Positions 37,695-50,080 of a DNA stretch of 64,000 bases are shown piece by piece; position 1 is the stretch's first letter, and each line of letters opens with the position of its first letter. The stretch comes from Candidatus Bathyarchaeota archaeon (lineage in GTDB: Archaea; Thermoproteota; Bathyarchaeia; Bathyarchaeales; Bathycorpusculaceae). Below the pieces are notes generated by a model that was given only the letters and a program-made list of their open reading frames with translations, ran no database searches and was not told the origin of the DNA. Where the stretch lies: NCBI GenBank assembly GCA_963827165.1, contig CAWGZR010000005.1, forward strand, positions 768,001 to 832,000, in the 5' to 3' direction. The position numbers were made by a program, and so were the translations under genes.

Positions 37695-37800
37695 AGGTCT
37701 TCCTGCTTGTTGTTATTAGCGGGGGGCGTGTTGATAAATGCTGACCCAAAATTTGAGCTCAGAACAATCGAAAGAAATCAGTTAAACAATAGTCTAAATC

Positions 37801-37817
37801 CGAAATGCTTATATTTT
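37801..37817 (+). promoter_or_regulatory. Putative BRE/TATA promoter of the aromatic operon leader
   Basis: CGAAATGC-TTATATTT about 40 nt upstream of ATG 37855. Confidence 0.55.
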
Positions 37818-37854
37818 CTGGATAATGACTCATTCTGCAAGGTTCGAAGCTTCA

Positions 37855-37938
37855 ATGTCTAATCTCGCAAGCAAAAAAGCAAACGCTGTATCATGGTTCC
37901 AGAGCTTCGGCTACTTTTATTATCGTTATTTTCCTTAA
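37855..37938 (+). CDS. Putative aromatic-amino-acid leader peptide MSNLASKKANAVSWFQSFGYFYYRYFP (alternative in-frame ATG 37825)
   Basis: 9 of the last 14 codons are W/F/Y; directly precedes the aromatic biosynthesis operon. Confidence 0.75.
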   Translation: MSNLASKKANAVSWFQSFGYFYYRYFP

Positions 37939-37976
37939 GCCCAGAACTAAAAATTTTTTTTGGCATGGTTCTGGGC
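37939..37976 (+). terminator. Putative attenuator hairpin GCCCAGAAC/GTTCTGGGC enclosing a T8 tract
   Basis: Perfect 9-bp inverted repeat starting immediately after the leader stop; T run 37954-37961. Confidence 0.6.
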
Positions 37977-37994
37977 AAAGCACGGGTGTAACAA

Positions 37995-39239
37995 ATGGAG
38001 ACAACTGGCTGTAAAATGATTGTCGTTAAATTCGGGGGTTCCAGCCTTGCGGATCACGAGCGGCTCTTAAAAGCAGTGGTTGCCGTCGTTAACGAAGCCA
38101 AGAAGGGCACTCGGGTCGCCGTTGTAGTGTCCGCTATGGGTAAAACCACCGATGTTCTTATGGCGACGGCGAAGAACGCTTCCAATGGGAAACTGGAGAA
38201 AAAAGACCTCGATGACATTCTCTCAATGGGTGAACGAACCAGCATCAGAATCTTTTCGACCGCGTTGAAAACAAACGGGGTCGAATCCTGCTACTTCGAC
38301 CCAATCGACAGCAACTGGCCAATAATAACTGATTCCGCCTTCCAAAACGCCAACCCAATCCTTACAGACTGCGAAAAAAACATCCGCCAATGCGTGTTAC
38401 CGGTGATGGAAAAAGGCGTGATTCCCGTAGTTGCGGGTTTTTTGGGCAAAACCAAAGACGGCAAAATAACGACTTTGGGAAGAGGAGGAAGCGACACAAC
38501 AGCGTTTGTGCTGGCCGAAGCGTTGGGAGCCGACGAAATCATTTTGGTTACCGATGCTGATGGCATAATGTCTGCTGATCCCAAAATTCTGTCGAACGTT
38601 CAGCGACTCAAAGAAGTCGATGTGAACACGTTAGTCGGACTTGCTGATTCAGGAGCCAAATTCATCCATAGCAAAGCCTTAAAATACAAACCCAAAAACA
38701 TCAATGTCCGTGTCATTAATCACGCCAGTGGAAGCCTTTCCGAGGAAGGCACCTTGGTCACGGGTGGCTTGGCCACGGAGCTTGACGCTGAACTCGCGCA
38801 TCCTTTCCCAGTCGCTGAAATAACGGTGATAGGAAACGGCATTTCAGCCAACCCTCAAATCATTCAGGAAATGATTGAGAAAACCAAGCGGCACTCGCTG
38901 CTTTTAGGTATGTCAATGAACACCAACTCCGTCATCCTCTATGTTTCTCAAGAGAAAAACCTGGATGGCCTTTTCAACGACGTCCACAATATAGTAAAAA
39001 GCAATACAGAAACCATTGCGATGGCGGTCAAGAAAGACCTTGTCTTCATCAAAACAAGTGGTGTTGGCTTGGAAGAAACGCAAGGCATCATCGGAAAAAT
39101 CAGCGAGGATTTGCGGGTTGGCGGCATAAACATTTCAGGCATCTTAACGATAACATCTAGTATTCTCCTTTTTATGGATTGGAGTGAACGGGAAAAAGCC
39201 CTCAAACTGATTAAAAACTCTTTAAGGAGCGCTAAGTAA
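37995..39239 (+). CDS. lysC: Aspartate kinase (start may be 38016)
   Basis: VVKFGGSS, VVSAMG.TTD, TTLGRGGSD.TA, C-terminal ACT-like domains. Confidence 0.93.
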   Translation: METTGCKMIVVKFGGSSLADHERLLKAVVAVVNEAKKGTRVAVVVSAMGKTTDVLMATAKNASNGKLEKKDLDDILSMGERTSIRIFSTALKTNGVESCYFDPIDSNWPIITDSAFQNANPILTDCEKNIRQCVLPVMEKGVIPVVAGFLGKTKDGKITTLGRGGSDTTAFVLAEALGADEIILVTDADGIMSADPKILSNVQRLKEVDVNTLVGLADSGAKFIHSKALKYKPKNINVRVINHASGSLSEEGTLVTGGLATELDAELAHPFPVAEITVIGNGISANPQIIQEMIEKTKRHSLLLGMSMNTNSVILYVSQEKNLDGLFNDVHNIVKSNTETIAMAVKKDLVFIKTSGVGLEETQGIIGKISEDLRVGGINISGILTITSSILLFMDWSEREKALKLIKNSLRSAK

Positions 39240-39248
39240 GGTGGAAAT

Positions 39249-40040
39249 ATGAATCAAGGAAAAACTCGAAGACTAAAAAGAATCATGCAGCAAGACAACC
39301 GCACAGTAATCGTGCCAATGGATCACGGAGTAACAATCGGGCCTATCCAAGGCTTAGCCAATATGCAGCAAATAATCAACCAGCTCATGAAAGGGGGAGT
39401 CGACGCTCTCCTTGTTCACAAAGGCATCGCCAAGCACACTGACATCGGAAACACAGGATTAATCGTTATGCTGTCTGGCATGTCCAACCTTAGCCCTAAC
39501 GTAAACGGCAAAGTCCAAGTGTGCAGCGTGCGGGAAGCCATCCGTATAGGGGCAGACGCGGTTTCCGTGCATGTTAACGTCGGCGCCCAAGACGAGGATA
39601 AAATGCTTTTCAACCTTGGCAAAGTTGCTGACGAATGCGAAGTTTACGGAATGCCGCTGCTTGCCATGATGTATCCTCGGGGACCCAAAATACAGAATGA
39701 ACATGCACCCGACCTTGTTGCGCATGCAGCACGAATCGGCGCTGAACTTGGTGCAGACATCATAAAAGCAAACTTCACAGGAAACATAGAAACATTCAAA
39801 ACAGTCGTGGAAAGCTGCCCAGTTCCAGTTGTGATAGCAGGAGGACCAAAATGCAAGACCTCTGAAGAGGTTCTGCAAACCACTCGCGATGCAATTTCAG
39901 CAGGGGCTTCAGGGCTTTCAATCGGACGCAACGTCTTCCAACATGAAAACCCCGCTCAAATCGTTAAGGCGCTTTCAGCAATCGTTCACGCCAGCGCCAG
40001 CGTGCAGGAAGCGCTCAAAATCCTCGGTGAGAAAGCTTGA
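39249..40040 (+). CDS. 2-amino-3,7-dideoxy-D-threo-hept-6-ulosonate synthase (class I aldolase, AroA')
   Basis: PMDHG, MMYPRG, ELGADIIK, IAGGP, GRNVFQ; adjacent to AroB'. Confidence 0.9.
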   Translation: MNQGKTRRLKRIMQQDNRTVIVPMDHGVTIGPIQGLANMQQIINQLMKGGVDALLVHKGIAKHTDIGNTGLIVMLSGMSNLSPNVNGKVQVCSVREAIRIGADAVSVHVNVGAQDEDKMLFNLGKVADECEVYGMPLLAMMYPRGPKIQNEHAPDLVAHAARIGAELGADIIKANFTGNIETFKTVVESCPVPVVIAGGPKCKTSEEVLQTTRDAISAGASGLSIGRNVFQHENPAQIVKALSAIVHASASVQEALKILGEKA

Positions 40041-41080
40041 AGGAACTCTGGGTTGAAATCGAGCAAGCAGCTTCACAGCAAGAAAAAGAAAACTTGCTGA
40101 GTACCGCACATGAAAGCGCGGATGTAGTTCTCGAAGGGGCAGAAGCTAGTACTCGTCAAGGCAAAATAGACATAGTATTCCTCGCTGAGCTAAACGAAAA
40201 AAAGATTTCTCAAGCCAAAACTGACGGCAGAAAAACCGCCGTTAAAATTAATATAAGAGGGAAAGAAGACGAGAACCGGGCTGCCAAAGCCGCTGAGTTA
40301 GGTGTCGACTACATAATTATTGCCACCAACGATTGGCGAGTCATACCATTGGAGAACTTAATTGCTAAGGCGCATGGGGGCAAAAGCAAACTAGTAGCAG
40401 AAGTCGCTACCGCGCAGGATGCCAAAGTTGTCCTTGAAGCCTTAGAGCTGGGAACAGACGGTGTACTGCTTAAAACCTCAAATTCAAACGAACTCGCCAA
40501 AACAGTGAAACTTGTCAAAGGGCAGATGCCTAAGGTGGAGTTAACAACCGCGAAAGTTCTCTCCATCCAACCAATCGGCACAGGCGCCAGGGTCTGCGTA
40601 GACACAGTTGATTTAATGGCTCCCGGCGAAGGAATGCTTGTCGGCTGCCAATCCGCGGGGTTCTTTCTGGTGGAAGCTGAAGTGAACGAGAATCCGTATG
40701 TGCAATCTAGACCTTTTCGCGTGAACGCGGGGCCAGCGTCACATTACACGTTAACGTCGCTGCAAAGCACCAGGTACTTGTCTGAACTGAAGGCAGGCGA
40801 CGAAGTCTTAATCGTCAACAGAGAAGGAAAAGTTAGAATAACCAATGTTGGAAGGTCAAAAATAGAGTTCCGACCGCTGATCCTCATTGAAGCGCAAGCG
40901 GACGACGCAAAAATAAAAACCATATTGCAAAACGCTGAAACCATCCGCCTAGTAACGCCCAAAGCATCCAAACCCGTCACCGAACTGAAAGTCAACGATG
41001 AAGTCCTTGTCCATTTAGCCGCGAAGGGTGGCAGACACTTCGGCGTTTCCGTGCCAGAAGAAACGGTGATTGAGAAGTGA
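40037..41080 (+). CDS. 3-dehydroquinate synthase II (AroB')
   Basis: W.VIPLEN, RVCVDT, RPFRVNAG, YLSEL..G, LQNAETIRL, RHFG. Confidence 0.93.
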   Translation: MKELWVEIEQAASQQEKENLLSTAHESADVVLEGAEASTRQGKIDIVFLAELNEKKISQAKTDGRKTAVKINIRGKEDENRAAKAAELGVDYIIIATNDWRVIPLENLIAKAHGGKSKLVAEVATAQDAKVVLEALELGTDGVLLKTSNSNELAKTVKLVKGQMPKVELTTAKVLSIQPIGTGARVCVDTVDLMAPGEGMLVGCQSAGFFLVEAEVNENPYVQSRPFRVNAGPASHYTLTSLQSTRYLSELKAGDEVLIVNREGKVRITNVGRSKIEFRPLILIEAQADDAKIKTILQNAETIRLVTPKASKPVTELKVNDEVLVHLAAKGGRHFGVSVPEETVIEK

Positions 41081-41760
41081 CCATGAGAATTTGCGTTTCA
41101 ATCCTACCGAAAAACTGCTTAGAGGCATTAGATCTCATTAAATGTGCAGAAACAGCCAAAGCCGACCTCATCGAAGTTAGGTTGGACCATCTCGAAATAT
41201 CCACAAACCTAAAGGAAATTACCAAGAGCACAAAAATACCGTTAATCGCGACCCGTAAGCTGACTAGCGAGAACGGTTTTTTTTCTGGAACGGAAGCTGA
41301 AAAGGAACAAAGTCTTCTGAACGCTGCTGAAAACGGTTTCGAGTATGTTGACGTTGATCTGTCAAGCCCAAACCATCAGGAAACAGCCGAAAAAATTAAG
41401 CAATTAGGCAGAAAACTTATCCTTTCCTACCACAAATCCGACGGTACCTTAAGCTGCTCTGCACTGGAGAATATTCTGGACGAAGAAATCTCCTGCGGCG
41501 CCAACGTCTGCAAAATCGTGGTAACAGCTAAGAAAATCGAGGACAACTTGGCAATGCTTAATTTCGTTGCTTCCCATTCAAGCAAAGCTAAACTTGTCTG
41601 TTTTTGCATGGGTGAAGCGGGCAAGGTTTCAAGGCTTCTTTCCCCGATGTTCGGTGCCTTCTTCACTTTTGCTTCGCTTGAACAGGGCAGCGAAACGGCG
41701 AAAGGGCAAATGTCGATTAGCGAAATGAAAACTGCATACGACCTCTTAGGAGGACCTTGA
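41077..41760 (+). CDS. aroD: Type I 3-dehydroquinate dehydratase
   Basis: EVRLD, YVDVD, LSYH, CKIV, MG..G..SR. Confidence 0.92.
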   Translation: MTMRICVSILPKNCLEALDLIKCAETAKADLIEVRLDHLEISTNLKEITKSTKIPLIATRKLTSENGFFSGTEAEKEQSLLNAAENGFEYVDVDLSSPNHQETAEKIKQLGRKLILSYHKSDGTLSCSALENILDEEISCGANVCKIVVTAKKIEDNLAMLNFVASHSSKAKLVCFCMGEAGKVSRLLSPMFGAFFTFASLEQGSETAKGQMSISEMKTAYDLLGGP

Positions 41761-41763
41761 GAG

Positions 41764-42630
41764 ATGCTTGTTTCAGGGAAAACCAAGATTTTCGGAGTAA
41801 TCGGAGACCCCATTGAGCACAGCCTAAGCCCAATCATCCAAAATGCAGCGTTTGCAGCCTCAAAACTTGACTGCGCTTTCTTGGCGTTTAAAGTAAAAGA
41901 CTCTGAGTTGGGAAAAGCCCTGGATGGCGTACGAGGGTTAGACATTCAAGGGCTCAATGTCACTATGCCGCATAAAACCGGTATTCTCGGCTTCTTAGAT
42001 GAAGTTGATCAGACAGCCAAGCTATTGAAGGCAGTTAACACGGTTAAGAACAAGGAAGGAAAACTCTTAGGGTTCAATACTGACGGTGCCGGCGCAACGG
42101 CAGCGCTAAGAGAAAACGGCGTTGAGCTCAAAGGCAAAAAAATAATGTTACTTGGGGCAGGTGGGGCTGCGAGGGCAATAGGTTTTGCATTGGCTGAGCA
42201 AGCGGGCGAGCTTTCAATTTTGAATCGGTCAATTCAGCCTGCCGCCGAGTTGGCTGAACTAGTTTATCACGAGTTCAATACCAAGGTTTTCGCATACACA
42301 CTTTCACCGTTGACAGTTAGAGGAACTCTTATTGATGCTGACCTGTTGATTAATGCTACTTCAGTCGGGATGGAGCCAAACGACAAAGAAAACATAGTGG
42401 ATCCCAGGTGGCTTAAGTCTGACTTGGTGGTAATGGATATAGTGTACAACCCTATTGAAACCCGACTTGCGAAAAACGCGAAGAAGGCAGGCGCAAAAGT
42501 CGTCAGCGGTATTGAAATGCTGATTTATCAGGGGGCGGCATCGTTTGAAATATGGACTGGTCAAAAGGCGCCAATTGGAGTTATGAGAGAGGCAGCGTTT
42601 AATCATTTGGAGAAGGAGCAGAAGAGTTGA
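41764..42630 (+). CDS. aroE: Shikimate dehydrogenase
   Basis: HSLSP, NVTMPHK, NTD, GAGGAARA, NATSVGM, DIVYNP. Confidence 0.95.
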   Translation: MLVSGKTKIFGVIGDPIEHSLSPIIQNAAFAASKLDCAFLAFKVKDSELGKALDGVRGLDIQGLNVTMPHKTGILGFLDEVDQTAKLLKAVNTVKNKEGKLLGFNTDGAGATAALRENGVELKGKKIMLLGAGGAARAIGFALAEQAGELSILNRSIQPAAELAELVYHEFNTKVFAYTLSPLTVRGTLIDADLLINATSVGMEPNDKENIVDPRWLKSDLVVMDIVYNPIETRLAKNAKKAGAKVVSGIEMLIYQGAASFEIWTGQKAPIGVMREAAFNHLEKEQKS

Positions 42631-43496
42631 TGGGGCAAGCTACGGCTATTGCGTATGGCGCTGCGACGATTGTTAACGCGATGGCGACCGGGAAAGGCGC
42701 CGCTTTTGGAGTTGATCTGTACACAAAGGCACAGGTAAAATTGATTGATGATCCTTCGATTATCAAAGCGGAGATAGCTTCTGACCCCAAAGAAAGCACC
42801 CTTCTGATGGAGAAAACTGTCGCTCGGGTTCTACAACGATTCAATGCAGAAAAGAGGTTCGGTGTAAAAGTTAAAACTTGGTCAAACATCCCCATTGCCC
42901 GAGGACTTAAAAGCAGCAGTGCAGCAGCGAACGCGGTGGCTTTGGCGACTACGGCGGCGCTTGGTGAAATGGAAGATGACTTTAGAATTATCAATTTGGG
43001 TGTGGATGCCGCTTTCGACGCGAAAGTTACGGTTACAGGAGCTTTCGATGATGCGTGCGCTTCTTATTTTGGCGGCGTAGTCCTTACTGATAACTTGGAA
43101 CGGAAAATTGTTGGGCAGTTGTCGCTTCCTGACGATTTAGTCGTGCTTTTTCACGTTCCTCCAAGGAAAGCCTATTCGGCTGACTCGAACATTGAAAGGC
43201 TTAAAAACATGACATCGCTGGTTCAGGTTGCTTACGAGGAGGCTTTAGCGGGAAAGTTTTGGGAGGCTTTGACGCTTAACGGTTTACTTTACTCCTCTGC
43301 TTGGGGGTACGACTCATCAATCGCAATTGACGCATTAGCTGCTGGAGCAGTGGCGGCTGGGCTTTGTGGTAAAGGTCCCGCAGTGACTGCTGTTATGCCT
43401 AAAGATAAGGTTGATTCGGTGAGGGCTGCATTTCAAAATTTCGGCGGCGAAGTCTTACAGGCCGGTTTCAACCGGGAAAAAGCAAAGGTGATTTAG
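42627..43496 (+). CDS. aroK: Archaeal shikimate kinase (GHMP family)
   Basis: NA.ATGKG, GLKSSSA, TGAFDDA. Confidence 0.93.
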   Translation: MMGQATAIAYGAATIVNAMATGKGAAFGVDLYTKAQVKLIDDPSIIKAEIASDPKESTLLMEKTVARVLQRFNAEKRFGVKVKTWSNIPIARGLKSSSAAANAVALATTAALGEMEDDFRIINLGVDAAFDAKVTVTGAFDDACASYFGGVVLTDNLERKIVGQLSLPDDLVVLFHVPPRKAYSADSNIERLKNMTSLVQVAYEEALAGKFWEALTLNGLLYSSAWGYDSSIAIDALAAGAVAAGLCGKGPAVTAVMPKDKVDSVRAAFQNFGGEVLQAGFNREKAKVI

Positions 43497-43498
43497 TA

Positions 43499-44803
43499 AT
43501 GGTGGATGTAATCGTTAAAAAATCTGAAAAGCTCAGCGGAGAAATCTGCGCTCCCCCCTCAAAATCCTACACTCAGCGGATGCTTATCGCAGCGGCTCTG
43601 TCCAACGGCACAGGTAAAGTGTCAAACCCGCTTCTTTCGGATGATACGGAAGCAACCCTGCGCGCGATAACGTCTTTGGGCTCTGAAATAACGTTTGAGG
43701 AAAACTGTTGGGCCGTCAAAGGTGCAGCTCCGATTAAAAACGCGAAATCACTTGTCGACTGCGGAGAATCTGGAGCAACATTGCGCTTCATGATACCCAT
43801 AGCTGCCTTGGCGAGTGAGCCCTCAATTCTCCTTTTCCGAGGTTCTCTTGACCGCAGACCTATTGAACCTCTAATAAAAAGCCTAGATGACTTGGGCGCC
43901 AAGGTTCATTTGAAGAAATTCGGAGATAAAGATGCGGTGGTTGTCGAGGGCGGCGGAATCCTCGGAGGCCAAACCTCTATCCGCGGAGATGTTAGTTCTC
44001 AGTTTATTTCAGGCTTAATGTTTGCTTGTCCGATGGCGAAGGTGGATACCGAAATCGTGCTCGAAACGCCCTTGGAGTCTGTTGGATACGCAAAAATGAC
44101 TTGGGATGTACTTTCGAAGCACGGGGTTAGAGTGGACGTTTACGGCAACTTCGAGCGCCTCTTAATCCCTGCCAACCAAAACTTCAAGCCTATCGACTGC
44201 AGAGTGCCCGGTGACTTCTCCTCAGCCGCATTTCTCCTTGCAGCCGCAGCCGTCACTAACTCGAAAGTTCAAGTAGACGACCTCGATTACGCGAACACTC
44301 AGGGCGACAAAGCCATTCTAGGAATCCTTAAACAGATGGGTGCAGCGGGGAAAGTGTGCGAAAACAGAGTGGAAATAGACGGCTTGGGCACCCCCCTTGA
44401 GCCCTTGAACCTTGACGCAAAAAACATTCCTGACCTTGTTCCAGTTTGCACGGCTCTCGCATGCTTTGCTAAAGGCACCTCAAAAATAACCGGCGCGAAA
44501 AGGCTCAGGTTCAAAGAGTCAGACAGGCTGCAATCCCTGCAAGCCGAATTCTCAAAGATGGGTGCGGAGATAGAAGTAGACTCGGATGGGTTAACCATTA
44601 AAGGTAACTCTGCCTTGCACGGCGCCGTAATCGACTCCCACAATGACCATCGTGTGGCGATGGCTTGCGCTGTTGCTGCTCTTTGCGCTGAAAAGCAAAC
44701 TATCATTCAAAACGCACAGTGCGTCAGAAAGTCTTATCCGCAGTTCTTCCTTCATTTGAAACAGTTAGGAGCGGAAATCGTTGGCGGGAAATTCGACAGG
44801 TAA
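43499..44803 (+). CDS. aroA: EPSP synthase
   Basis: PPSKS, ESGATLR, SSQFISG, PGDFSSA, KESDR, DHRVAM. Confidence 0.95.
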   Translation: MVDVIVKKSEKLSGEICAPPSKSYTQRMLIAAALSNGTGKVSNPLLSDDTEATLRAITSLGSEITFEENCWAVKGAAPIKNAKSLVDCGESGATLRFMIPIAALASEPSILLFRGSLDRRPIEPLIKSLDDLGAKVHLKKFGDKDAVVVEGGGILGGQTSIRGDVSSQFISGLMFACPMAKVDTEIVLETPLESVGYAKMTWDVLSKHGVRVDVYGNFERLLIPANQNFKPIDCRVPGDFSSAAFLLAAAAVTNSKVQVDDLDYANTQGDKAILGILKQMGAAGKVCENRVEIDGLGTPLEPLNLDAKNIPDLVPVCTALACFAKGTSKITGAKRLRFKESDRLQSLQAEFSKMGAEIEVDSDGLTIKGNSALHGAVIDSHNDHRVAMACAVAALCAEKQTIIQNAQCVRKSYPQFFLHLKQLGAEIVGGKFDR

Positions 44804-45893
44804 AGAATTTGTAGTTACCACTTTCGGCGAAAGTCACGGCAAAGTCGTAGGAGTCTTGATAGATGGTTGCCCAGCAGGCTTACCCATATCTGAGGCTGAC
44901 ATTTTGGCCGAGTTGGACAGACGCATCCCCGCTGACCCTAAAATAGTCTCCAGCAGAATTGAAAAAGACGTTCCCAAAATTCTTTCAGGCGTTTTTAACG
45001 GCTTCACGACTGGCGCTCCAATAGCCGTTACCGTTGAAAACAAAGAGGTAGAATCAGCGGATTACGAAGCAATCAAGGATTTACCCCGTCCTGGGCACGC
45101 GGATTACCCAGCGAAAGTTCGATATGGCGGGTTTAACGATTACCGCGGTGGCGGCCGCTTCAGCGGAAGAGTTACAGTTGCTTTGATAATGGCTGGAGCC
45201 ATAGCCAAAAAACTGCTAAGCCGCTTCGACATTGACGTTTTAGCATATACAAGAGCCATAGGCAAAGTTAGAAGCGACAAGAAGTTCAGCACCCAAGAAA
45301 TCGAAAGGAATCGCTACGCCGTGACAACGCGATGTCCTGACCCTAAATGTGGAGAAAGAATGGAGCAAGCCATTGTTGACGCTAGAAGAGAGAGCGAAAG
45401 CATCGGCGGAGTAATTGAATGCATCGTTCTTAACGTTCCAGCGGGGGTTGGCGAGCCAATGTTTGATTCGCTTGACGCCGACTTATCTAAAGCTTTGATT
45501 AATGTGCCCGCCGTTAAGGGTGTGGAGTTCGGGTTGGGCTTCGAGATCACCGAGTTAAAAGGCTCAGAAAGTAACGATGCATACGTAATGCAAAATGGCA
45601 AAGTCACAACTTCAACGAATAACATGGGTGGAATCTTGGGCGGCTTATCCAACGGCATGCCCATCATTATGCGCGTGGCAATTAAGCCGACGCCTTCCAT
45701 CTTCAAAACACAGAAAACCATTGATCTATCAAGCATGGAAGAAACATCTGTAAGCGTCAATGGCAGGCACGACCCATGCGTGGTTCCAAAAGCCGTCCCC
45801 GCCGTGGAAGCCGCCGTTGCTGTGACGTTAGCTGACCACATGATTCGTGTAGGTTTCATACCGAAAATCTTGGAGGCAAAGAAAAAATGTTAG
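44781..45893 (+). CDS. aroC: Chorismate synthase
   Basis: FGESHG, RPGHAD, GGGRFSGR, KPTPSI, RHDPC. Confidence 0.96.
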   Translation: MAGNSTGKEFVVTTFGESHGKVVGVLIDGCPAGLPISEADILAELDRRIPADPKIVSSRIEKDVPKILSGVFNGFTTGAPIAVTVENKEVESADYEAIKDLPRPGHADYPAKVRYGGFNDYRGGGRFSGRVTVALIMAGAIAKKLLSRFDIDVLAYTRAIGKVRSDKKFSTQEIERNRYAVTTRCPDPKCGERMEQAIVDARRESESIGGVIECIVLNVPAGVGEPMFDSLDADLSKALINVPAVKGVEFGLGFEITELKGSESNDAYVMQNGKVTTSTNNMGGILGGLSNGMPIIMRVAIKPTPSIFKTQKTIDLSSMEETSVSVNGRHDPCVVPKAVPAVEAAVAVTLADHMIRVGFIPKILEAKKKC

Positions 45894-46150
45894 ACGAGCT
45901 TGAACTTTACAGAAAAGAAGTTGACCAAGTTGACGATTTGATTTTGAAATCGTTGACTGAAAGAGTCAAGATATGCATGGCGATAGGTTTGTTGAAGAAA
46001 AAGCGTGGACTGCCAGTTAAAGATATTTCCCGAGAAAATGATGTTTACAAAAAGGTAAAGGCGAAATCTGCCAAATTGTGCCTGGATTCCGCGAGGGTTG
46101 AGGCAGTTTACCGCGAAATAGTTAATATGTGCAGTGCAGTTCAAGAGTAA
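45887..46150 (+). CDS. aroQ: Chorismate mutase, AroQ type
   Basis: L..YR.E.D..D..I...L.ER, D..RE. Confidence 0.88.
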   Translation: MLDELELYRKEVDQVDDLILKSLTERVKICMAIGLLKKKRGLPVKDISRENDVYKKVKAKSAKLCLDSARVEAVYREIVNMCSAVQE

Positions 46151-46180
46151 GAAATAATCTGAAAAGGAAAGTTTACGGTA

Positions 46181-47260
46181 ATGCTCTACGAAATAAACGA
46201 GAAAGCCATAAGACTTGAGAACGAAGGAAAGAAAATAATCCGCTTAAACTTAGGTGACCCGGACCTTGCAACGCCACCTGAAATAGTGGAAGCTGCGTAC
46301 GCCGCAATGAAGGCAGGCAAAACAAAGTATGCCTCAGCTTACGGCGAAGAAAAATTAAGGCAGAAACTCGCGAAGATTCATGGAGTTAAACCAGAGAACG
46401 TAGTTATTACGCCTGGTTCAAAATGGGGCGTTTTCGCCACGTTATATCTGACGATGAAAGGCGGCGGCAACATCATCGTTCCCACACCTTACTGGACCGC
46501 CTACGATTTGATGGCTAAAAGCCTCGGTGCCGAAACAAGACTGTTGAGAACCGAAATGGAAAACGGCTGGAAAGTGGATTTGGGCAAGCTTGAAGCCACG
46601 ATTGACAAAGACACAAAAATGATTATACTCAATAACCCCAATAATCCAACAAGCAAAGTCATGGATCCCAAAACCTTAGACGGTATAGTGGAAATCGCCA
46701 ACAAGAGGGGTATAACCATCCTTTCAGACGAAGTTTACGGTCCAATTAGCTTTGTAAAAACAAAAAGCATCCTTGAATATGACGGCAACAACACCCATAT
46801 TCTCTCAAACGGCTTCTCAAAAATGTTCACAATGACAGGCTGGCGAATCGGCTACATAATAGCAAACAAGCCGCTAATCGACAACATAACAAAACTGAAC
46901 CAAATTACCATAAACAACGTTCCTGTTTTCATACAGGAAGCAGCTTTGAAAGGGCTTGAAATGCAGAAGAGCCTGACCAAAACAATAGAAACCGAATATG
47001 AGGAACGCGCAAAGATGGCGTGTAAAACCTTGGCGAAAGCAGGGCTATCCTTCACCGAACCCGAAGCACCCTTCTACGTGTTTCCCAAACGCAAAGGCTT
47101 AGACTCCGAAAAATTCGCGTTAAAACTGCTTGACAAAGGCGTGGCCGTTGCACCCGGAACCTCTTTCGGAGACTACCGAGAACATTTCCGCATCTCCCTA
47201 ACCGCGCCCAGAGAAGAAATCACGATCGGATTGGATAAAATAAGCGAGGCGCTTAAATGA
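46181..47260 (+). CDS. Class I/II PLP aminotransferase (aspartate/aromatic)
   Basis: G.PD, NNPNNPT, DEVY, SK.F.MTGWRIG. Confidence 0.92.
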   Translation: MLYEINEKAIRLENEGKKIIRLNLGDPDLATPPEIVEAAYAAMKAGKTKYASAYGEEKLRQKLAKIHGVKPENVVITPGSKWGVFATLYLTMKGGGNIIVPTPYWTAYDLMAKSLGAETRLLRTEMENGWKVDLGKLEATIDKDTKMIILNNPNNPTSKVMDPKTLDGIVEIANKRGITILSDEVYGPISFVKTKSILEYDGNNTHILSNGFSKMFTMTGWRIGYIIANKPLIDNITKLNQITINNVPVFIQEAALKGLEMQKSLTKTIETEYEERAKMACKTLAKAGLSFTEPEAPFYVFPKRKGLDSEKFALKLLDKGVAVAPGTSFGDYREHFRISLTAPREEITIGLDKISEALK

Positions 47261-48132
47261 AAACCGCCGTTCTCGGCGCGGGAAAAATGGGTGTTTGGTT
47301 CGCAAAATTTTGCGAAGAGAACGGCGATAGCGTAATCCTGTCAGATAGAAAATCTGAGAAGCTGACGAAACTTGGTAAAGAGTTAGGGGTCGAAACCACT
47401 ACTAACTTCGTGGAAGCGGCTAAGGTAGCTGACGAAATAATGATTTGTGTTTCAATCAGCAGCTTCGAAGAAGTTGTAAAAAAAATAGGCCCACATATTC
47501 ATGATGGGCAAGTGGTTACTGACATATGCTCAATCAAAGAGTACCCCGTCAAAGTCATGCATGAGTACATCAAGCACGGCTTGGTTTTAGGTACTCACCC
47601 CGTTTTCGGTCCGGGAAGCAAAGGCGTAAAACACAAAGCTTACGTGCTTACCCCAACGTCTCCCGAGGAGGAGAAATATGCCGACGGCTTCAAAAGGTGG
47701 CTGGAAAAAGAAGAAGCACACGTTTTTGTGATGACGCCTCAGAAACATGACCAACTCATGTCCGTCGTTCTAGGACTGCCTCATTTCCTCGGATTAGCTG
47801 CCTGCGAAACCCTTCTCGAACAAAAGGACTTCCCTGAAACCAAGAAGATGGCAGGGACAACTTACCGCATGCTATTTACTCTTGCAGAGGTAGCCGCTCT
47901 TGAAACTCCTGACCTATACGCTAACCTGCAGATGAAGCTGCCTGAGATGGGAAAAATCGAAGACCTCTACATCGCCAAGGCGCAGGAGTGGCTGGACTTG
48001 CTTAAGAAAAAGGACCCGTTGGTCATCATTAACCGAATGGAGCAGCTCAGAGCTAAGCTGCTGAAAGCTGACCCAAACTTCGTCGAATCCTACGAAATCA
48101 TGTACCGAATGCTTGAAGCGACGGAAAAGTAG
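47257..48132 (+). CDS. tyrA: Prephenate/arogenate dehydrogenase
   Basis: GAGKMG, D.CSIK, HPVFGP, HD..M..V.GL.H. Confidence 0.92.
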   Translation: MKTAVLGAGKMGVWFAKFCEENGDSVILSDRKSEKLTKLGKELGVETTTNFVEAAKVADEIMICVSISSFEEVVKKIGPHIHDGQVVTDICSIKEYPVKVMHEYIKHGLVLGTHPVFGPGSKGVKHKAYVLTPTSPEEEKYADGFKRWLEKEEAHVFVMTPQKHDQLMSVVLGLPHFLGLAACETLLEQKDFPETKKMAGTTYRMLFTLAEVAALETPDLYANLQMKLPEMGKIEDLYIAKAQEWLDLLKKKDPLVIINRMEQLRAKLLKADPNFVESYEIMYRMLEATEK

Positions 48133-48835: not shown

Positions 48836-49271
48836 GTGGAATTTGAGAAGGCTCCAGCTGGACTTGTCGAATTCATCGCAGAAAAGGTGAAGAACGTAAA
48901 CTTCGAGTACCGCCAAATGTTCGGGTACCCCATCCTACTTCATCAACGGCAACATGTTTGTAGGACTTTTCGGTGATAAACTACTTCTGAGGCTTTCATA
49001 CGTTGACTCAGTGGAAATTTTTAAAACCCACCCGGACTCTGAGTTTTTTGAGTCAATGCCTGAAAGAGCAATGAAAGGCTATGTCGCACTTCCAAGATCA
49101 GTTTATTCAAACGACGCTGAGTTTGAGAAATTTCTCAATAAATCGATCGAATATGTTTCGTCGTTGCCTCCCAAAAAAACGAAAGCTAAGAAGAAAAGCG
49201 ACTATTCACCTATTTGTAGGGACAATCCCAAAATCTTGAAAAAAATTTATGTTGAAATAGCTCCAATTTAG
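48836..49271 (+). pseudogene. TfoX/Sxy N-terminal-family protein split by an extra C in CCCC 48928-48931
   Basis: Removing one C gives RQMFGYPSYFINGNMFVGLFG...MKGYV.LP...EYVSSLPPK. Confidence 0.75.
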
Positions 49272-50080
49272 ATTACTCGCGGGTAGGACCCTAGAATTTT
49301 CACGAATGTAGCGTATTTTTCCAAGGCTTCCAAAGCTTCTGCACAGCGTTTTTCGGTTCGATGACCTTCGAAGTCAAGGTAGAAGTTGTACTGCCATGCG
49401 GTGGTTTTTGTTGGTCTTGATTCGATTCTTGTCAAGTTGATATTTCTTGAAGCAAACTCTCCGAGGGCGTGGTAAAGGGTTCCAGGGGCGTGTTTGGCTG
49501 AGAAGATGATTGAGGTTTTGTCGTCTCCTGTCGGCGCCGCATCTTCATGTGACAACACCAGAAATCGGGTATAGTTCGATGCGTTATCAGCTATGTCTCT
49601 GGAGAGAATTTTCATGCCATAGAGACCTGCCGCTTTTTCGCTGGCGATTGCTGCAGCGTTGAAAAGGCATTTTTCTTTTATGAGCTTAACGCTTCCAGCT
49701 GTGTCATAGACAGGGATGATTTCCCATTTTTGTTTTTCAAGGTAGTTTCGGCATTGCGCCAGGGCCTGGGGATGCGAATAAACCGTTTCGATGTCCTCAA
49801 GTTTGGTTTGTGGGTTGCCGATAAGGACATGGGCAAGTTTCACCGCCACTTCTCCGCTGACTTTGAGGTCGTAGGCCAGGAACAAGTCATAGTTTTGGTT
49901 AACGCTGCCTTCGATCGAATTCTCGATTGGGATAACTCCAGCTGGAACCGCTGCATTCTTTACTGATTCGAAGACGTCACGGAAGTCCTTGCATGGAACT
50001 GGCTCCACTTTGCTGCCGAAGAACTTGTAGACCGCCATTTCGCTGTAGGCGCCGCTTTCACCTTGGAAGGCTACCTTCAC
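49268..50080 (-). CDS. pheA: Prephenate dehydratase
   Basis: AFQG..GAYS, PIENS.EG, SHPQALAQC, N.TRF, ESRP (ACT). Confidence 0.95.
   Translation of the reverse strand: MKVAFQGESGAYSEMAVYKFFGSKVEPVPCKDFRDVFESVKNAAVPAGVIPIENSIEGSVNQNYDLFLAYDLKVSGEVAVKLAHVLIGNPQTKLEDIETVYSHPQALAQCRNYLEKQKWEIIPVYDTAGSVKLIKEKCLFNAAAIASEKAAGLYGMKILSRDIADNASNYTRFLVLSHEDAAPTGDDKTSIIFSAKHAPGTLYHALGEFASRNINLTRIESRPTKTTAWQYNFYLDFEGHRTEKRCAEALEALEKYATFVKILGSYPRVI

Follow-up and report, generated by a model that had tools for sequence, protein, structure and literature searches.

The window that we analysed is a stretch of 64,000 nucleotides from Candidatus Bathyarchaeota archaeon (assembly GCA_963827165.1, contig CAWGZR010000005.1, forward strand). 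It contains an operon of aromatic biosynthesis that starts with an aspartokinase gene, and this operon is preceded by a leader holding a short upstream open reading frame (uORF), rich in Tyr and Phe codons at its end, with a hairpin abutting its stop codon. These conserved parts and their geometry are observed here. To judge from the sequence, this conserved Tyr/Phe leader-peptide element, placed ahead of an archaeal aromatic operon, is almost certainly functional. Quite probably, too, the position of the ribosome on the uORF sets the state of the hairpin. The further step, which we propose tentatively and with somewhat less than even confidence, is that the leader may act as a ribosome-mediated attenuator, signalling to the aspartokinase-aro operon how much charged tRNA-Tyr and tRNA-Phe is available, with a transcriptional output.

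The uORF (37855..37938, + strand) has 27 codons followed by TAA, and its predicted peptide, MSNLASKKANAVSWFQSFGYFYYRYFP, associates an N-terminal half variable among relatives with a Tyr/Phe-rich tail, WFQSFGYFYYRYFP. In the window, the last 14 residues include one Trp, four Phe and four Tyr, and the first 13 none. Such a composition says little in a single genome. Under a rule asking for an ATG-started frame of 12–50 codons, with at least six F, W or Y among its last 14 and ending 20–120 nucleotides before a long open reading frame, 8 of the 3064 upstream regions of the window's genome pass, this leader among them; given this background the leader is not significant in one genome, and the case therefore rests on conservation across genomes. 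A scan of the genome for enrichment in any residue likewise ranked the leader about 14th among many chance matches.

Orthologs of the aspartokinase were found in 24/24 genomes of the same genus and in 3/16 same-order genomes of other families (51–60% identity), to which named public genomes added 80 loci at 71–94% identity (the best 80 of 497 confirmed stretches). In all the 107 orthologous loci so collected (at least 51% identity), an ATG uORF with a Tyr/Phe tail stands just before the gene, and its codons alternate between TAC and TAT and between TTC and TTT: the conserved F/Y-rich uORF with synonymous variation, which the original prediction had set beforehand as its test, is thus found everywhere it was looked for in this set. 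These loci correspond to 89 distinct leaders, 86 of them in the genus, with 85 distinct uORF nucleotide sequences. By contrast with the orthologs, none of the three loci where a paralogous aspartokinase comes after dapB carries the uORF.

The way the uORF varies is as telling as its presence. All the 85 nucleotide versions of the genus are open and have 24–29 codons, with an N-terminal half that varies freely. The codons of the tail were compared from an invariant Phe codon taken as anchor: the consensus reads Ser-Phe-(Asp/Gly/Glu)-Tyr-(Tyr/Gly/Phe)-Phe-Tyr-Tyr, followed by more Tyr, Phe or His, and between the anchor Phe and the end of the peptide the length varies from 10 to 13 codons. Tyr sites change synonymously (TAC 64 and TAT 18 at one, TAT 36 and TAC 29 at another), as does the Phe three codons ahead of the anchor (TTC 49, TTT 14), and Tyr and Phe replace each other at several sites of the tail. 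The principal block of control codons (Y F Y Y R Y F, 37912..37932, + strand) displays this behavior, its aromatic residues being kept through Y/F interchange and TAC/TAT variation; the central run favours TAT and TTT, which are the less-used codons of the window's genome (37% and 45%, respectively). Over the 86 leaders of the genus, Tyr makes up 37% and Phe 27% of the last 12 residues (64% together), compared with 3.2% and 4.5% (7.7%) genome-wide. On this codon evidence, the pattern is the one expected for a translated sensor of Tyr/Phe codons, unlike that of a conserved protein; the peptide matched no family of NCBIfam or Pfam at E-values up to 10. Tyr would weigh more than Phe in the predicted signal, in keeping with prephenate dehydrogenase being the last gene of the operon. 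Trp occurs in just 28/86 peptides of the genus and at no fixed position, so that the sensing of all three aromatic amino acids, as first proposed, is not supported. The last residue is Pro in 49/86 peptides. In bacteria a Pro before the stop slows the release of the peptide, and a longer stay of the ribosome on the 5' arm of the hairpin could therefore be expected.

This hairpin, called C:D (37939..37976, + strand), begins immediately after the stop codon and comprises nine Watson-Crick pairs and a U.G pair around a loop with A5 and U8; its arms, 37939-37947 and 37968-37976, are exact reverse complements. The U8 tract of the loop (37954..37961, + strand) is a candidate archaeal termination or pause signal. 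The features on which the original prediction was built, namely a TATA-like box, the frame 37855-37938, the 9-bp stem, T8 at 37954-37961 and an operon starting 19 nucleotides past the stem, are all present at these places. From the 86 genus leaders RNAalifold returned a single consensus helix, which is the post-stop hairpin, with 97% of the cells paired. As in the window, the stem starts directly at the stop in most of them (0 nucleotide in 82/86, 3 in three and 5 in one); it is uninterrupted over 9–12 bp in 80/86, and its mean free energy is −18.6 kcal/mol. The spacing between the arms ranges from 12 to 28 nucleotides. A U-run is held inside the hairpin, with at least four U in 81/86 leaders and at least five in 71/86, and part of it pairs with the preceding A-run in minimum-free-energy folds. 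A hairpin directly followed by a U-run is not the pattern of the genus: at most two U follow it in the window and in 84/86 leaders. The inverted repeat is single-copy in the 3.1-Mb genome, apart from one imperfect and chance-like match, and the idea of an operator shared with other genes was discarded on this ground. The 8-mer CATGGTTC that had been noticed as a repeat does occur twice, at 37892 and 37964, and is not kept in relatives.

Upstream, the leader is bounded by a promoter, TTATATTT (37801..37816, + strand), in which a CGAAA resembling the B recognition element (BRE) precedes a TATA box, TTATAT at 37809-37814. This BRE/TATA stretch is conserved at no less than 85–95% in 83 genus leaders between variable flanks. 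As archaeal transcription usually starts about 25 nucleotides after the centre of the TATA box, a start near 37839 is predicted, upstream of the uORF as the original prediction required. Segment A of the 5' untranslated region (5' UTR), AGGTTCGAAGCT (37840..37851, + strand), would therefore lie at the extreme 5' end of the mRNA. It is at least 90% conserved in the 86 aligned leaders and ends 3–7 nucleotides ahead of the uORF ATG. Its partner, segment B (37903..37911, + strand), covers the codons Ser-Phe-Gly (Ser-Phe-Asp in most relatives) just ahead of the aromatic run and would form the 3' arm of a stem A:B. Seven consecutive base pairs can form between the two segments in at least 80 of the 86 genus leaders, and the stem is present in the minimum-free-energy folds of all four genus members that were folded. 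Moreover the synonymous sites of segment B are frozen (AGC in 82/85, TTC in 85/85), unlike those of the other Phe and Tyr codons, which points to a constraint at the nucleotide level. The A:B pairing comes without covariation and is hence deduced from complementarity. The c(UUCG)g mini-hairpin AGCTTCGGCT reported earlier at 37903-37912 does exist in the window; it needs a GGC codon, found in 15/85 sequences against 60/85 for GAC, and is thus not conserved, so that this stretch is better described as the window's variant of the 3' arm of A:B. We also note that a 10-nucleotide stretch overlapping segment A (37843-37852, with a TTCGAA core) has 21 exact copies in the genome, about 6 being expected from its length alone.

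Is this organization restricted to one genus? Dehydroquinate (DHQ) synthase II was found in 76/151 sampled genomes of the class Bathyarchaeia, 70 of the matching genomes being outside the genus. From these, 40 places were hand-picked across families, avoiding contig starts, and 33 had a same-strand aspartokinase start with enough upstream DNA. The strict aromatic rule is passed upstream of aspartokinase by 18 of these 33 loci, for a background of 8 in 3064 under that rule; these 18 belong to four other genera of the same family and to families f7, f11, f14, f16, f17, f19, f27, f30 and f34; the f17 locus (L130) is doubtful, with another type of motif, a stem 5 nucleotides past the stop and a z-score of +0.6 for its post-stop fold. 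Joined to three outgroup leaders (f5, f7) and to the window, these 18 make a set of 22 leaders, in which the folded stem starts 0–5 nucleotides after the stop (0 in 14) while its sequence differs wholly between families. The 61 nucleotides after the stop fold better than shuffled sequences (z below −2) in 16/22, with a median z of −2.55; L130 and L141 are among the exceptions. The same layout thus recurs across families: an aromatic uORF, a stable hairpin close to its stop, a Shine-Dalgarno (SD) sequence, and aspartokinase. In the sister genus g18 two positions of the stem are changed on both sides with pairing kept, and this bears on the covarying pairs that had been anticipated: compensation is seen only between genera and families, the changes within the genus being almost all one-sided, through G.U pairs, and no better than in shuffles. 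In three groups, f14, f11 (g26) and f7, five to six U directly follow the hairpin. In f30 (L139, L141, L143), a conserved AAGGAG precedes the aromatic uORF, whose likely start is ATG, GTG or TTG as judged by eye; such a switching is the behavior of a real translation start.

The layout may extend further. Elsewhere in the phylum, 102/201 genomes of other classes have DHQ synthase II, and among 20 hand-picked loci 13 have aspartokinase upstream. An aromatic short frame ends 16–70 nucleotides before aspartokinase in 6 of these 13 (f42, f45 twice, f56 twice, f60), compared with none of the 7 loci devoid of aspartokinase.

From these parts a mechanism can be sketched, for which we infer the translation of the uORF, the stalling, the footprint of the ribosome, the role of A:B in a pioneer round and the entire output step. 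Transcription would begin about 16 nucleotides ahead of the uORF, and a pioneer ribosome would translate it; once segment B is made, A:B could close over the 5' end of the uORF and limit further initiation. When Tyr- or Phe-tRNA is scarce, this ribosome would stall on the Y/F run, 5–9 codons before the stop, leaving free the 5' arm of C:D, so that the hairpin would fold as soon as its 3' arm is transcribed. With a good supply it would instead reach the stop, where a footprint of about 9–10 nucleotides past the stop would cover exactly the 5' arm and block the hairpin. The footprint figures come from bacterial toeprinting, and their use for archaea is an extrapolation. The folded hairpin would be the "on" state, shielding both the naked leader RNA and the U-tract, some of which pairs with the A-run, from archaeal termination, by which we mean pausing or termination at oligo-U helped by aCPSF1/FttA. 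The unfolded state would expose both, and transcription would end before aspartokinase. In favor of a transcriptional output we counted the conserved U-run, the presence of an aCPSF1 ortholog, the A:B stem and the Pro before the stop in 49/86 peptides. The ortholog of aCPSF1/FttA is encoded in the window's genome (889 bits, for a cut-off of 580), and aCPSF1 is described in PMC8716108 as binding terminator U-tracts through its KH domains.

Several observations weigh against this attenuation scheme. One concerns timing: the U-tract of the loop is transcribed before the 3' arm, and therefore the hairpin cannot affect a purely intrinsic termination at this place; a factor acting later, or a pause, is needed. 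Another concerns sign, since the hairpin followed by a U-run in f14, f11 and f7 looks like a bacterial-type terminator, which a ribosome sitting at the stop would prevent, with the opposite effect on the operon. Moreover a U-run of at least four between the stop and the SD is absent in 9 of the 22 leaders of the wider set, in other lineages, so oligo-U is no universal output. The C:D helix itself is not proven by covariation inside the genus: the score is 0.092 versus 0.090 for shuffles and was reached by 104/500 of them, almost all changes being one-sided and G.U-keeping, with two-sided changes at only two pairs (2 sequences each). The near-invariance of the 3' arm hints at a second constraint. 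Neither was a conserved pair of mutually exclusive helices seen in the genus; A:B and C:D coexist in the minimum-free-energy folds. Finally, the region upstream of trpE has no Trp-rich frame, and the genome scan revealed no other convincing amino-acid-rich leader. In its most complete form, where the Tyr/Phe leader gates termination by aCPSF1/FttA and oligo-U, the hairpin is an anti-terminator, A:B ensures a single pioneer round and the whole is an old and widespread device of archaeal ribosome-mediated attenuation, the scheme must be regarded as unlikely.

An antiterminator formed by the 5' UTR and the post-stop arm was considered for the genus and abandoned: the UTR pairs best with segment B, and the shuffle fractions are mostly 0.1–0.3. 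Complementarity between the 5' UTR and the post-stop arm does occur in f7 and f5 (shuffle fractions 0.02–0.05 in 3/5 leaders and 0.19–0.44 in the two others); no such partner was found in the other families. Also rejected was a freed 3' arm sequestering the SD, an effect predicted in some families, yet not beyond shuffles. As for other amino-acid leaders in the window's genome, scanning all upstream regions for short frames enriched in a residue gave just noise.

The main rival keeps the sensor and changes the output. Where the uORF ribosome stands and whether the hairpin is folded would set initiation at aspartokinase without any termination of transcription, by reinitiation or shunting across the base of the hairpin, by occlusion of the SD by the terminating ribosome or by the opening of a standby site. 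It requires neither a U-run nor a given timing of the polymerase, and so accommodates the 9/22 leaders devoid of U-run; besides, the end of the hairpin is followed after a few nucleotides, whatever the family, by a purine-rich SD-like run and a start codon (assessed by eye, untallied). When the first 11 nucleotides after the stop are blocked in silico, the predicted unpaired probability of the SD falls in f14, f30 and f27 (0.72 to 0.21; 0.77 to 0.06). However, this effect does not exceed that of shuffles overall (3/26 leaders at 0.04 or less), is inconsistent within the genus and vanishes in the window, where the predicted accessibility of the SD is 0.38 when free and 0.39 with the 5' arm blocked. 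In this respect the leader departs from translational attenuators of the ermC/cat type, in which one ribosome-dependent conformation hides the SD or start of the main gene. The SD lies outside both conserved stems, and simple coupling would give the wrong sign, because stalling would lower the translation of aspartokinase. The closure of A:B over the 5' end of the uORF would also suit a single pioneer round more than a steady-state control. We therefore hold a translational output to be rather unlikely, although it is the rival to be taken most seriously.

The other rivals dispense with the sensing of charged tRNA. If the nascent peptide, like TnaC, responded inside the ribosomal tunnel to a free amino acid, here Tyr or Phe, the ribosome would be held at the stop, the hairpin kept open and the operon off. 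The Ser-Phe-Asp/Gly/Glu-Tyr motif and aromatic tail conserved at the peptide level, the Pro found last in 49/86 and the adjacency of stop and hairpin, which would give weight to a ribosome held there, are compatible with this arrest; but across families the tails are alike in composition and not in sequence, the Y/F interchange and the variable length (10–13 codons) are unlike a motif fitted to the tunnel, the frozen Ser-Phe codons are accounted for by stem A:B and the terminal Pro is not universal, all of which makes an arrest peptide improbable. A stable micropeptide acting in trans, or a mere translational enhancer, with no amino-acid sensing, would agree with a conserved frame that is probably translated (conserved promoter, and in f30 the AAGGAG before ATG, GTG or TTG, by eye). 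It would not explain why the N-terminal half is unconstrained, why neither Pfam nor NCBIfam yields a match at E-values up to 10, why the paralogous aspartokinase lacks a uORF, and why the residues enriched are precisely the operon's end products, in many families whose sequences are unrelated; we regard it as very improbable. Still less credible are DNA operators, with the inverted repeat (37939-47, 37968-76) and the TTCGAA-containing segments A and B bound by an aromatic-responsive repressor and the uORF incidental. The 3' arm of C:D, A and B are indeed nearly invariant, and segment A coincides with the predicted transcription start, where archaeal repressors often bind. But the arms are spaced by anything from 12 to 28 nucleotides, the substitutions of the 5' arm mostly keep G.U pairs (33 wobble cells versus 8 mismatches, the top pair excluded), unrelated stems occupy the same post-stop place in other families, the repeat has no second copy in the genome, and an aromatic-rich frame open in 107/107 loci would be left unexplained.

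Leader-peptide attenuation is a textbook bacterial mechanism that relies on the coupling of transcription and translation. In the pheL and trpL leaders of Escherichia coli, the stop lies at the 5' edge of a helix, the position of the ribosome decides the folding and a U-run is nearby, and likewise in the leader described here. The likeness extends to the short 5'-leader frame rich in codons for the end product of the operon, as presented for pheL-pheA and trpL-trpEDCBA in PMC11802643. The differences are no less clear: the host is here an archaeon with a Pol II-like polymerase, and without Rho or intrinsic termination of the bacterial type; no conserved set of competing helices 1:2, 2:3 and 3:4 was seen; the U-run lies in the loop of the hairpin and not after it; and the start codon is enclosed by the upstream helix, one arm of which is in the 5' UTR. 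As deduced from the sequence features, the sensing step would be like that of a bacterial attenuator of the trpL/pheL/hisL class, the succession of a terminator and a U-run is not found in the genus, and competing helices are not established.

In the tnaC-tnaAB operon of E. coli, the leader peptide controls a Rho-dependent termination; TnaC responds to free Trp, and the operon that it induces is catabolic. The scheme proposed here would share with it a ribosome that, at the stop of the leader, decides the access of a termination factor to the adjacent RNA. With respect to tnaC, the sign would be reversed, no conserved arrest motif was seen, and an RNA hairpin lies between the stop and the presumed target of the factor. 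In archaea, aCPSF1/FttA is presented as the functional counterpart of Rho in PMC11616081.

A closer parallel for the codons is aroR-aroF of Corynebacterium glutamicum, where a mixed Phe-Tyr-Phe leader precedes an operon of the common aromatic pathway and responds to ribosome stalling (Neshat et al. 2014, as summarised in PMC11802643); according to this review, aroR responds to Phe and not to Tyr, whereas here Tyr codons dominate and the operon ends in the Tyr branch. It is a bacterial system, with three control residues there versus 7–10 here. The poly-Cys attenuators of mycobacteria reportedly act on translation. The SD sequestration that a translational mechanism of this type needs was not found here beyond shuffles in the predicted folds. 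These mycobacterial leaderless uORFs nonetheless resemble our leader in that a first short frame rich in the codons of one residue controls biosynthetic genes, on a polycistronic mRNA with no obvious classical terminator, but in bacteria (bioRxiv 10.1101/834739).

The full-text collection that was searched yielded no leader-peptide attenuator in archaea, only bacterial cases and papers on archaeal termination: no word beginning with "attenuat" occurs in a review of archaeal coupling (PMC8116511), and PMC2965389 names archaea only in its reference list. Rfam, whose families include leaders of amino-acid operons, riboswitches and the T-box, gave no match at gathering score in the whole window; between 37700 and 38100, with E-values up to 10, the sole match was a chance small nucleolar RNA on the other strand (14 bits, for a cut-off of 80). 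If the proposal is true, sensing by leader peptides is either older than the divergence of bacteria from archaea or has evolved separately on a Pol II-like machine. A conserved archaeal example would then give a compact natural read-out of the dialog between the ribosome and the archaeal RNA polymerase with aCPSF1/FttA, so that an element of 160 nucleotides would allow a direct test of functional coupling and polarity in archaea. It would also explain how the aroA'/aroB' aromatic pathway is tuned in uncultured Bathyarchaeia, and provide archaeal genetics with a ready-made amino-acid-responsive part.

The operon occupies 37995..48132 (+ strand), as defined by Pfam matches and closely packed frames of the same strand. 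Its genes encode in order aspartokinase, a DeoC-type aldolase (aroA'), DHQ synthase II (aroB'), aroD, aroE, a GHMP-type shikimate kinase, EPSP synthase (aroA), chorismate synthase (aroC), chorismate mutase, an aminotransferase and prephenate dehydrogenase. The products of aroA' and aroB' form the archaeal aspartate-semialdehyde route to dehydroquinate, and the genes so identified lead from chorismate to prephenate and to Tyr. The ATG of aspartokinase is at 37995 (+ strand), 19 nucleotides past the end of the stem; with a Shine-Dalgarno-like GGGTG it delimits the stretch 37984..37997 (+ strand), the GGGTG being at least 90% conserved, 5–8 nucleotides before the ATG. On the 5' side of the leader, the gene belongs to the inositol-monophosphatase family and is on the divergent strand, so that 37695-37994 can be taken as the promoter-leader region. 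A prephenate dehydratase gene of the Phe branch (49268-50080, − strand) lies just past the operon, as the last gene of a converging one; being on the opposite strand it should escape the control of the leader, despite the richness of the latter in Phe codons. A second aspartokinase is encoded in the window's genome (C5:125531-126685; also loci L028-L030). It has 36–49% identity, directly follows the end of a dapB-like gene and is leaderless; its existence implies that the aro-linked aspartokinase is a dedicated paralog. The close relatives are Bathyarchaeota/Bathyarchaeia of peat, bog and soil.

Four metatranscriptome runs from peat or wetland hold parts of the stretch as assembled contigs, which represent small shares and are mute on RNA ends, strand and level. 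One contig matches the window exactly from 37979 to 38132, and three contigs of relatives span the region from the aromatic codons through the hairpin to aspartokinase: leader and aspartokinase can share one contig of an RNA library. The contig starting at 37979 raised the possibility of an internal promoter in the A/T-rich loop, which was rejected: the place where a contig ends is no proof, and relatives have loops that do not resemble a TATA box.

Some side observations deserve mention. In the same genome, trpE (locus L111:1450-2868, − strand, contig C11) appears as a frame of 472 codons matching the chorismate-binding family, with no ATG, GTG or TTG until codon 140; an ATG is present at the 5' end of this frame, in another frame, which suggests a frameshift of the assembly or an unusual start. 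The families of Bathyarchaeia in which the Tyr/Phe uORF is lacking (L126, L128, L131, L134, L137 and L140, of f17 and f31; L138, L142 and L148, of f26) share another stretch, located about 100–160 nucleotides upstream of aspartokinase and made of a purine-rich run followed by CGTTTTCAGG-like and GTTTAC-like blocks. Read as a short frame in several loci, this stretch has repeated Arg-Arg-x-(Tyr/Phe)-Val-Phe units, and it may be a second type of leader. Lastly, a gene of about 1.08 kb is inserted between aspartokinase and aroA' in many families (L120-L121, L126, L128, L130, L132-L134, L136, L138-L139, L142, L144-L145, L147-L149, L152 and L157-L169) and is absent from the window's genus.

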